From assembly GCF_003334785.1 (NCBI RefSeq), contig NZ_QOWV01000014.1: a DNA stretch of 64,000 nt. The stretch is one strand, 5' to 3'. The position numbers were made by a program, and so were the translations under genes. Of the stretch, positions 29,307 to 40,885 are shown piece by piece. The notes under the pieces are model-generated. The model made no database searches. It was not told the origin of the DNA and saw only the letters and a program-made list of their open reading frames with translations. Every line of letters starts with the position of its first letter. Within the stretch, counting starts at the first letter, position 1. Source of the stretch: Escherichia coli (GTDB lineage: Bacteria; Pseudomonadota; Gammaproteobacteria; Enterobacterales; Enterobacteriaceae).

Positions 29307-29717
29307 ATGTCCAGACCAACTATCATCATTAACGACCTGGATGCCGAACGCATCGATATTCTGCTGGAGCAACCCGCCTATGCTGGTTTGCCAATCGCCG
29401 ACGCGTTAAACGCAGAGTTGGATCGCGCCCAAATGTGTTCGCCAGAAGAGATGCCACACGACGTGGTGACAATGAACAGCCGGGTTAAATTCCGCAATCT
29501 TAGCGATGGCGAAGTGCGTGTGCGCACGCTGGTGTATCCGGCAAAAATGACCGATAGCAATACTCAGCTTTCCGTTATGGCTCCGGTAGGTGCCGCACTG
29601 CTGGGGCTGCGCGTTGGCGATTCCATTCACTGGGAACTTCCGGGTGGCGTTGCAACCCACCTTGAAGTGCTGGAACTCGAATACCAGCCAGAAGCTGCTG
29701 GCGACTACCTGCTTTAA
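29307..29717 (+). CDS. rnk: regulator of nucleoside diphosphate kinase (GreA/B-like)
   Basis: 136-aa [25 protein letters not shown]... Confidence 0.92.
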
Positions 29718-29854
29718 TCCCATCTGCACAAGCGATAACTCGCTTTGCCCAGAGGATGCACTCGCATCCTCTTTACGCAAAATCAGCAATTTTTCCTGGT
29801 TCTCACTGTTCACTTTTGCTGCAAAATTATTCCGTTTCGTTTGTGGGAATAACC

Positions 29855-29944
29855 ATGGCAGAAGCATTTTACATCCTGATAGGATTTCTGATTATGGCGG
29901 TGATTATCGTCATGGCTGTCCTTTACCTCGAAAACCACTCCTGA
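29855..29944 (+). CDS. candidate small single-pass membrane protein (29 aa)
   Basis: ATG at 29855 preceded by GGGAAT about 5 nt upstream; MAEAFYILIGFLIMAVIIVMAVLYLENHS is one hydrophobic helix; stops 3 nt before convergent ybdR; not a protein I recognise. Confidence 0.3.
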   Translation: MAEAFYILIGFLIMAVIIVMAVLYLENHS

Positions 29945-29947
29945 CGA

Positions 29948-31186
29948 TCATATTGTTCCCCCCGGCATCGCATTCACCAGACCTGAAACCGCCTTCTGCG
30001 CCGCCTCTGCGCTTTGTGCACCGGGTACCAGAATCACCTTACGGCACTCCTCTTCACGTTTTTCGAAAATCTCATATCCCCGGGCGGCCTCTTCAAACGG
30101 CATATAGTGGGTAACAATTTCTTCTGGTTTCAGTAATCCTTTCTCAATTAACGGTAATAATTCTCCCAGCCATGCGTGAACGTGGGTCTGTCCCATTTTA
30201 AACGACAACCCTTTATCAAAGGCGTCGCCAAACAGGAAACCGTGAATAAATCCAGCGTAGACGCCCGGTACGCTAACAATGCCGCCACGCCTGACCGCCG
30301 CAATACACTGACGCAACGCTTTACCGCTGCTGCCCTCCAGTTTCAGGTTAGTCAGCACCGTTTCCGTGGTGCTGCCTTTCGCTTCAAAACCGACGGCGTC
30401 TATTACTGCATCCACGCCCCGGTGACCTGCCGTTTGTTCAATAATTGACTGTGCCGGATCGCTGTCTTCATCAAAATTAATCGGGATCGCGCCGTAGCGG
30501 TCGGCGGCGAAATGCAAGCGGTAGGGATGATGATCAACAACAAAAATCTGTTCCGCACCGAGCAACCGTGCACAGGCGATTGTCAACAATCCCACAGGAC
30601 CAGCACCATAGACTGCAACGCTTGAACCTTGTTGGATCTGCGCATTTTTTGCTGCCTGCCATGCCGTTGGCAGAATATCAGAAAGGAAAAGCGCTTTATC
30701 ATCTGAAAGCAAAGGCGGTACTTTAAACGGCCCCACATTCCCTTTAGGGACGCGGACATATTCCGCCTGCCCACCAGGAACGCCGCCATACAGGTGACTA
30801 TAACCAAACAATGCCGCTGGAGCTGGTATCTGTTTTTTATTGAGCGCAGCGCCTTTACCCGCATTGGTATTTTCGCAGGCGGCATATTGTTGCAATCGAC
30901 AGAAAAAACAGTCGCCACAAGCAATGACGAACGGAATTACCACTCGGTCGCCTTTTTGCAAATTTTTTACGTCCTTTCCGGTTTCAACTACTTCCCCCAT
31001 AAATTCATGACCAAAAATATCGCCATGTTTAACCTGAGGTATTTTGCCTCGATAAAGATGGAGGTCAGAGCCACAGATCGCCGTTGCCGTAATACGCAGA
31101 ATAATATCATCTGCCTGTTCAACGCCCGGATCGGGAACATTTTCTACCTGAACGTGATGTGGGCCGTGATAAGTCAATGCTTTCAT
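29948..31186 (-). CDS. ybdR: Zn-dependent alcohol-dehydrogenase-family oxidoreductase YbdR
   Basis: 412-aa ORF with MDR zinc-ligand motif (GHEFMGEV) and Rossmann GxGxxG (GAGPVG). Confidence 0.9.
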
Positions 31187-39796: not shown

Positions 39797-40885
39797 ATGC
39801 CTCACAATCCTATCCGCGTGGTCGTCGGCCCGGCTAACTACTTTTCACATCCAGGAAGTTTCAATCACCTGCACGATTTTTTCACTGATGAACAACTTTC
39901 TCGCGCGGTGTGGATCTACGGCAAACGCGCCATTGCTGCGGCGCAAACCAAACTTCCGCCAGCGTTTGGACTGCCAGGGGCAAAGCATATTTTGTTTCGC
40001 GGTCATTGCAGCGAAAGCGATGTACAACAACTGGCGGCTGAGTCCGGTGACGACCGCAGCGTGGTGATTGGCGTCGGTGGCGGTGCACTGCTCGACACCG
40101 CGAAAGCCCTCGCCCGCCGTCTCGGTCTGCCGTTTGTTGCCGTTCCGACGATCGCCGCCACCTGCGCCGCCTGGACACCGCTCTCCGTCTGGTATAATGA
40201 TGCCGGACAGGCGCTGCATTATGAGATTTTCGACGACGCCAATTTTATGGTGCTGGTGGAACCGGAGATTATCCTCAATGCACCGCAACAATATCTGCTG
40301 GCGGGGATCGGTGACACGCTGGCGAAATGGTATGAAGCGGTGGTGCTGGCTCCGCAACCAGAAACGTTGCCGCTAACCGTGCGACTGGGGATCAATAATG
40401 CGCAAGCCATTCGCGACGTCTTGTTAAACAGTAGCGAACAGGCGCTGAGCGATCAGCAAAATCAACAGTTAACGCAATCATTTTGCGATGTGGTGGATGC
40501 TATTATTGCTGGTGGTGGGATGGTTGGTGGTCTGGGCGATCGTTTTACGCGTGTGGCGGCAGCTCATGCCGTGCATAACGGTCTGACCGTGCTGCCGCAA
40601 ACCGAGAAGTTTCTCCACGGCACCAAAGTCGCCTACGGAATTCTGGTGCAAAGCGCCTTGCTGGGTCAGGATGATGTGCTGGCGCAATTAACTGGAGCGT
40701 ATCAGCGTTTTCATCTGCCGACTACACTGGCGGAGCTGGAAGTGGATATCAATAATCAGGCGGAGATCGACAAAGTGATTGCCCACACCCTGCGTCCGGT
40801 GGAGTCCATTCATTACCTGCCAGTCACGCTGACACCAGATACGTTGCGTGCAGCGTTCAAAAAAGTGGAATCGTTTAAAGCCTGA
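39797..40885 (+). CDS. ybdH: iron-type hydroxycarboxylate dehydrogenase (HcxA/YbdH)
   Basis: 362-aa ORF resembling glycerol/1,2-propanediol dehydrogenase family. Confidence 0.88.
   Translation: MPHNPIRVVVGPANYFSHPGSFNHLHDFFTDEQLSRAVWIYGKRAIAAAQTKLPPAFGLPGAKHILFRGHCSESDVQQLAAESGDDRSVVIGVGGGALLDTAKALARRLGLPFVAVPTIAATCAAWTPLSVWYNDAGQALHYEIFDDANFMVLVEPEIILNAPQQYLLAGIGDTLAKWYEAVVLAPQPETLPLTVRLGINNAQAIRDVLLNSSEQALSDQQNQQLTQSFCDVVDAIIAGGGMVGGLGDRFTRVAAAHAVHNGLTVLPQTEKFLHGTKVAYGILVQSALLGQDDVLAQLTGAYQRFHLPTTLAELEVDINNQAEIDKVIAHTLRPVESIHYLPVTLTPDTLRAAFKKVESFKA

Follow-up and report, generated by a model that had tools for sequence, protein, structure and literature searches.

yldA, a small membrane protein gene between rnk and ybdR in Escherichia coli: conservation, two divergent alleles and a possible relationship to YoaI

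We analysed a 29-codon open reading frame (ORF) that lies between rnk and ybdR in an Escherichia coli genome, and it is virtually certain that this ORF is yldA and a real protein-coding gene. With only slightly less confidence, we regard it as a known, translated E. coli gene that encodes a protein of 29 residues with one transmembrane helix. yldA has already been named, annotated and experimentally detected, and the ORF is no discovery. The relationship of its product to the membrane protein YoaI is a new lead and, together with an allele dimorphism within E. coli, provides modest, testable side observations.

The yldA locus

Throughout this work, the window is the whole stretch of DNA that was analysed, 64,000 nucleotides of the E. 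coli contig NZ_QOWV01000014.1 (RefSeq assembly GCF_003334785.1). The locus contains the following features, given with their positions in the window, the strand and the basis of the assignment:

29307-29717, plus strand: rnk, from the ORF and the annotation; lies upstream of yldA in the same orientation and served as synteny anchor
29726-29748, plus strand: smaller hairpin directly after the rnk stop, from the same fold as the next hairpin; partly conserved in the alignment
29751-29772, plus strand: hairpin AGAGGATGC-ACTC-GCATCCTCT followed by TTT, from the fold; upstream of yldA, with a weak U-tract
29844-29850, plus strand: Shine-Dalgarno-like GTGGGAA, read from the sequence; about 5-6 nt 5' of the yldA ATG
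29855-29944, plus strand: yldA coding sequence of 29 codons and a TGA, from the ORF and its translation, the RefSeq annotation, the NF041476 score and the coding substitution pattern
29948-31186, minus strand: ybdR, from the ORF and the annotation; convergent with yldA

The yldA ORF starts with an ATG at 29855-29857, ends with a TGA at 29942-29944 and encodes the product MAEAFYILIGFLIMAVIIVMAVLYLENHS. It is contained in a gap of 230 bp between the stop of rnk (29717) and the stop of ybdR on the opposite strand (29948), and the stop codons of yldA and ybdR are just 3 nt apart. An earlier reading of this DNA, made from its letters and here called the sequence-only reading, had proposed a 29-aa ORF with an ATG start at this place, in a 230-bp gap convergent with ybdR; its position, its translation and the arrangement of the neighbouring genes were all borne out. 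The plausible Shine-Dalgarno sequence that had been proposed along with it is found as the G-rich GTGGGAA, and the position of this motif is kept in the orthologues. Those from other genera carry a GGGGA- or GGAA-type motif at the same spot 5' of the ATG, with the consensus 'g.gGg.a.....cg.tcATG', and we infer that GTGGGAA at 29844-29850 acts as the Shine-Dalgarno sequence of yldA.

A longer, in-frame ORF of 62 aa, which begins at an ATG at 29756, was considered as well. Since this start falls within the rnk hairpin and the additional codons lack conservation, the start of the 29-aa ORF is the right one. Elsewhere in the window, a 32-codon ORF at 40488-40586 on the plus strand has a very hydrophobic product (MWWMLLLLVVGWLVVWAIVLRVWRQLMPCITV). 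It lies out of frame within an ORF of 362 aa (39797-40885) and was dropped as a candidate small gene, being most likely incidental.

The protein has one hydrophobic stretch that is long enough to span a bilayer, the Kyte-Doolittle values of residues 4-25 averaging 2.82. From this hydrophobicity we infer that YldA is a membrane protein with one helix, in agreement with the single hydrophobic helix and short tail that the sequence-only reading had described. The tail of the window allele reads ENHS instead of ERHW, so that charge gives little guidance on the topology of this allele.

Identity of the gene and published evidence

In the annotation of E. coli K-12 MG1655, yldA (b4734, YP_009518757.1) is located at 643330-643419 on the minus strand and follows rnk in the same arrangement as in the window. 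The RefSeq product name 'small membrane protein YldA' was found in all 20 of the 20 full-length E. coli genome matches that were sampled. The window peptide scored 51.7 bits (E 6.1e-14) on the NCBIfam equivalog model NF041476, which has a curated cut-off of 45 bits, and its residues 1-29 aligned with positions 1-29 of the 29 in the model. With the gene annotated in RefSeq as yldA and a dedicated NCBIfam model in existence, the description of the ORF as unannotated in the sequence-only reading was wrong. The window protein is identical to K-12 YldA (MAEAFYILIGFLIMAAIIVMAVLYLENHS, flanked by ybdR and rnk; PMC6001520) in 28 of 29 residues, the sole change being A16V, and DNA identical to the yldA region of the window is present in other E. 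coli strains, e.g. at 100% in strain S1.

The YldA protein of K-12 was detected by VanOrsdel 2018 using a chromosomal SPA tag and immunoblotting (PMC6001520, Table 1). Chromosomal epitope tagging, which had been named as a way to check the ORF, was thus already published. In that study, cells grown in rich medium made K-12 YldA from the gene at its native locus (PMC6001520). In addition, a Ribo-seq study places yldA among the 'previously known sORFs' (PMC10746267, supplementary file 7). In a data set on NaF, yldA is among 100 transiently upregulated genes and belongs to cluster 6, which also holds phoPQ and rstAB as well as genes for envelope and osmotic stress (PMC10100675, Table 2). A function, a partner, a phenotype or a membrane fractionation of YldA was not found in the searchable literature.

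Conservation and loss of yldA

Using rnk as a synteny anchor, which avoids a bias toward intact ORFs, the region around this gene was fetched from 80 species-representative genomes and all six frames were scanned with an HMM. An intact yldA ORF was present at 34 of the 80 loci, about 140 nt 3' of rnk, and in every case it started with ATG and comprised exactly 29 codons. The orthologues amount to 36 distinct DNA sequences, for which the entropy was 0.66, 0.49 and 1.18 at the first, second and third codon position, and pN/pS was 0.37 in the yldA frame compared with 1.24 and 1.31 for the two alternative frames. Among closer yldA pairs, dN/dS was about 0.27. At the protein level, the residues M1, E3, A21, V22, L25 and E26 are invariant. 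Where it is present, yldA is under purifying selection. Conservation of the ORF and the pattern of synonymous and nonsynonymous substitutions had both been put forward as checks in the sequence-only reading, and both turned out in favour of a gene: the frame is intact across genera with an unchanging length and start codon, and synonymous changes dominate. With a frame that is kept across genera and substitutions of the kind expected for coding DNA, the ORF goes beyond what chance would give.

We also considered that the conserved element is an RNA or DNA element, i.e. the 3' UTR of rnk, a terminator region or a sequence antisense to the 3' end of ybdR, and that the ORF is incidental. The close apposition of the yldA and ybdR stops, 3 nt from each other, would fit such an element, and the pair ybdR-yldA is on a list of convergent excludons that were observed in 50% or more of RNA-seq samples (PMC12288877). 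The same can be said of the rnk hairpin just 5' of yldA and of the lack of a separate yldA promoter in our searches. However, the changes concentrate at third codon positions and the low pN/pS is confined to the yldA frame, the length and the ATG do not vary in the 36 distinct DNA sequences, and loci that lack ybdR conserve the ORF just as well. As tagged YldA has moreover been detected (PMC6001520), this explanation is already largely refuted, and we regard it as extremely improbable. Among the rnk-anchored species loci, every one of the four combinations of presence and absence of ybdR and yldA is found, showing that the conservation of yldA is no by-product of the 3' end of ybdR.

At 46 of the 80 species loci surveyed yldA is missing, and nothing was detectable there except one weak remnant. 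In the Enterobacter species that lack yldA, the gene has been cleanly deleted at one common site, with differing end points (loci L033, L034, L039 and L045 versus L036, at about 3470-3650). That more than half of the species lack yldA, and that several clean deletions have removed it within Enterobacter, marks it as a dispensable gene with a history of repeated loss. Two individual loci are worth recording. In Enterobacter hormaechei subsp. hoffmannii, yldA is deleted and the leader is retained as far as the Shine-Dalgarno sequence, and in Enterobacter cloacae DSM 26481 a weak match (HMM E = 4) may be what is left of the C-terminal motif of YldA.

The rnk hairpins and transcription of yldA

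The region directly downstream of rnk (29715-29790) folds with -24.6 kcal/mol (z = -5.55 versus shuffles). The exact stem of the hairpin at 29751-29772 was found at 53 of the 80 species loci. These include loci without yldA, for which reason the hairpin can be assigned to rnk, and it most likely represents the rnk terminator. It was not called by a consensus terminator scan because its T-run is short, and this short U-tract makes read-through into yldA plausible.

The two arms of the stem, GAGGATGC and GCATCCTC, are identical across many genera and enclose a variable loop (53 of the loci L003-L082, near 3445). This conservation exceeds the needs of a terminator, and no compensatory changes were seen; the hairpin might also be a protein-binding palindrome. 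Locus L017 has two copies of the stem, at 3445 and 3608.

A consensus scan did not reveal a sigma-70-like promoter between the rnk hairpin and the yldA ATG, and a search by eye of the conserved leader blocks for -35/-10 hexamers and for PhoP or PhoB boxes gave nothing convincing. One promoter-like and one terminator-like site within the yldA ORF were disregarded, as such sites occur there at about chance frequency. yldA is probably transcribed by read-through of the weak rnk hairpin, or else from a promoter within the 85 nt that precede the ATG, and its transcript would overlap with the convergent ybdR transcript.

Two alleles of yldA in E. coli

A megablast search with positions 29700-29960 of the window against 5,426 complete E. 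coli genomes gave matches in 5,423 of them. The window-type allele of yldA together with ybdR is present in 3,603 genomes, and a second allele (MSEALGITAFYIFIAAIIVAAVLYLEQRW), followed directly by uspG and not by ybdR, in 1,818. The two proteins share only 48% identity, and the nearest relative of the window-type allele is a sequence from Citrobacter amalonaticus with 69% identity. Immediately beyond the rnk hairpin, the two locus types no longer resemble each other in DNA sequence (window 29773-29947; L002 3075-3375), a break that points to an ancient replacement or recombination at the yldA locus of E. coli. In E. coli HS-02 (NZ_CP172818.1, 630473-630700), the ybdR-less locus was matched over 68% of its length, in two pieces with 93% identity; no yldA is annotated under the match, and this copy may be disrupted or deleted.

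The distribution of the alleles bears on another explanation, according to which YldA is a type I toxin-like peptide that is repressed by the antisense ybdR transcript and damages the membrane if overproduced. YldA is short and very hydrophobic, and yldA overlaps with convergent transcription, features that are also those of Ibs, Ldr, TisB and similar peptides. On the other hand, yldA is a single-copy, syntenic gene, with a median of one place per E. coli genome and no second copy within the window, whereas type I toxin genes often come in several copies. Furthermore, it is kept without ybdR in the 1,818 genomes with the second allele, i.e. a third of those in E. coli, as well as in many species, so that the supposed antisense partner is optional. 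Cells in rich medium contain detectable YldA expressed from the native locus (PMC6001520), and in the NCBIfam searches no toxin family appeared; the only recurring second-best family was that of the regulator YoaI. We therefore consider a toxin very unlikely.

Likeness of YldA to YoaI

YoaI (b1788 in K-12) is a membrane protein of 34 aa that activates EnvZ-OmpR. Its residues S26, V27 and E31 are invariant, and the substitutions E31A or E31Q abolish the binding to EnvZ (PMC11429745). The YoaI model NF041475 was the second-best family for all ten YldA sequences that were searched, namely the window protein (22.8 bits) and nine diverse orthologues (19-32.8 bits), with E-values from 5e-8 to 1e-3 and the alignments in one register. 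None of 20 control sequences matched this model, comprising 5 full shuffles, 10 shuffles of the helix core in which the polar ends were kept and 5 reversed sequences. In a search with a YldA HMM made here, YoaI of K-12 reached 19.3 bits, a score that was attained by none of 5,000 full shuffles (maximum 12.3) and none of 5,000 core-only shuffles (maximum 16.3). Comparison of YldA and YoaI with hhalign gave a probability of 92% and an E-value of 6e-7, again in the same register.

Like YldA, YoaI consists of one helix with a short C-terminal tail, and the two proteins can be aligned without gaps (YldA 2-28 with YoaI 7-33). They have in common a Glu near the N-terminus, an I-T pair, an aromatic residue at position 11 of YldA, V19, V22, L23 and an E-R tail. 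The invariant S26, V27 and E31 of YoaI align with the invariant A21, V22 and E26 of YldA, with Ala in place of Ser. Both genes are also arranged tail-to-tail with a larger convergent gene, the distance being 0 nt for yoaI-yeaK and 3 nt for yldA-ybdR. As yoaI abuts yeaK (K-12, L084 10079-10183) and yldA abuts ybdR, both must overlap with the transcript of the convergent neighbour. In contrast to YoaI, YldA does not have the five N-terminal residues, has Ala for the invariant Ser and is encoded at a different locus. All ten YldA sequences, with 19-33 bits, missed the curated cut-off of 45 bits of NF041475, and YldA is thus no YoaI equivalog. Pfam holds no family for YoaI, and hence there is no Pfam family shared with YldA.

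Taken together, these comparisons lead us to favour homology of YldA and YoaI, to which we attach a fair degree of confidence, bearing in mind that for peptides of about 30 residues, most of which form one helix, convergence and common descent cannot be told apart. A statement of such a relationship was not found in the literature searched. It is conceivable, at a clearly lower probability, that YldA is a real protein whose likeness to YoaI is convergent and whose partner is unrelated, for example a transporter or a respiratory complex, as for AcrZ, KdpF and CydX. Binding to a transporter or a complex is known for many small membrane proteins (review PMC12648545). The scores of YldA below the cut-off of the YoaI family point in the same direction, and so does the weak reciprocal match, since YoaI reached 14.1 bits (E 0.035) on NF041476, where core-shuffled YldA controls were as good with 9-16 bits. 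However, the in-register match to YoaI survives controls in which only the helix core is shuffled, and it covers residues that are invariant in both families.

Proposed mode of action

We expect YldA to span the inner membrane with a single helix (residues 4-25, approximately); the short tail at its C-terminus, LYLE(R/N/Q)(H/R)(W/S), would by analogy with YoaI probably be on the cytoplasmic side. As for other bacterial small membrane proteins, its most likely mode of action would be to bind a larger inner-membrane protein and to tune the activity of the latter. The regulators MgrB, MgtS, AcrZ, PmrR and SamT resemble YldA in having fewer than 50 residues, one transmembrane helix and no enzymatic capacity, as well as in their occurrence in only a subset of enterobacterial genera and their stress-linked expression, whereas no sequence similarity of YldA to them was found in NCBIfam searches.

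Given that the resemblance to YoaI is in register and takes in the invariant A/S-V...E positions, our best specific guess is that YldA modulates a sensor kinase, EnvZ or another, via the invariant Glu26. Such a YoaI-like action on a kinase is a tentative proposal and less probable than the homology itself. We would be similarly cautious about the more detailed version, in which YldA may be a truncated YoaI paralogue, restricted to some genera of the Enterobacteriaceae, whose juxtamembrane E26 (corresponding to E31 of YoaI) would bind the cytoplasmic side of the kinase.

Overall, the case of yldA shows that a reader of the sequence alone is able to single out a true small gene. The alignment with YoaI provides a testable idea for YldA, and the two deeply divergent yldA alleles of E. 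coli offer a natural comparison: if YldA is a kinase modulator like YoaI, alleles with 48% identity could differ in their partner or in their strength. If the idea is true, YldA would join YoaI, as the second member, in a small family of peptides that modulate two-component systems.
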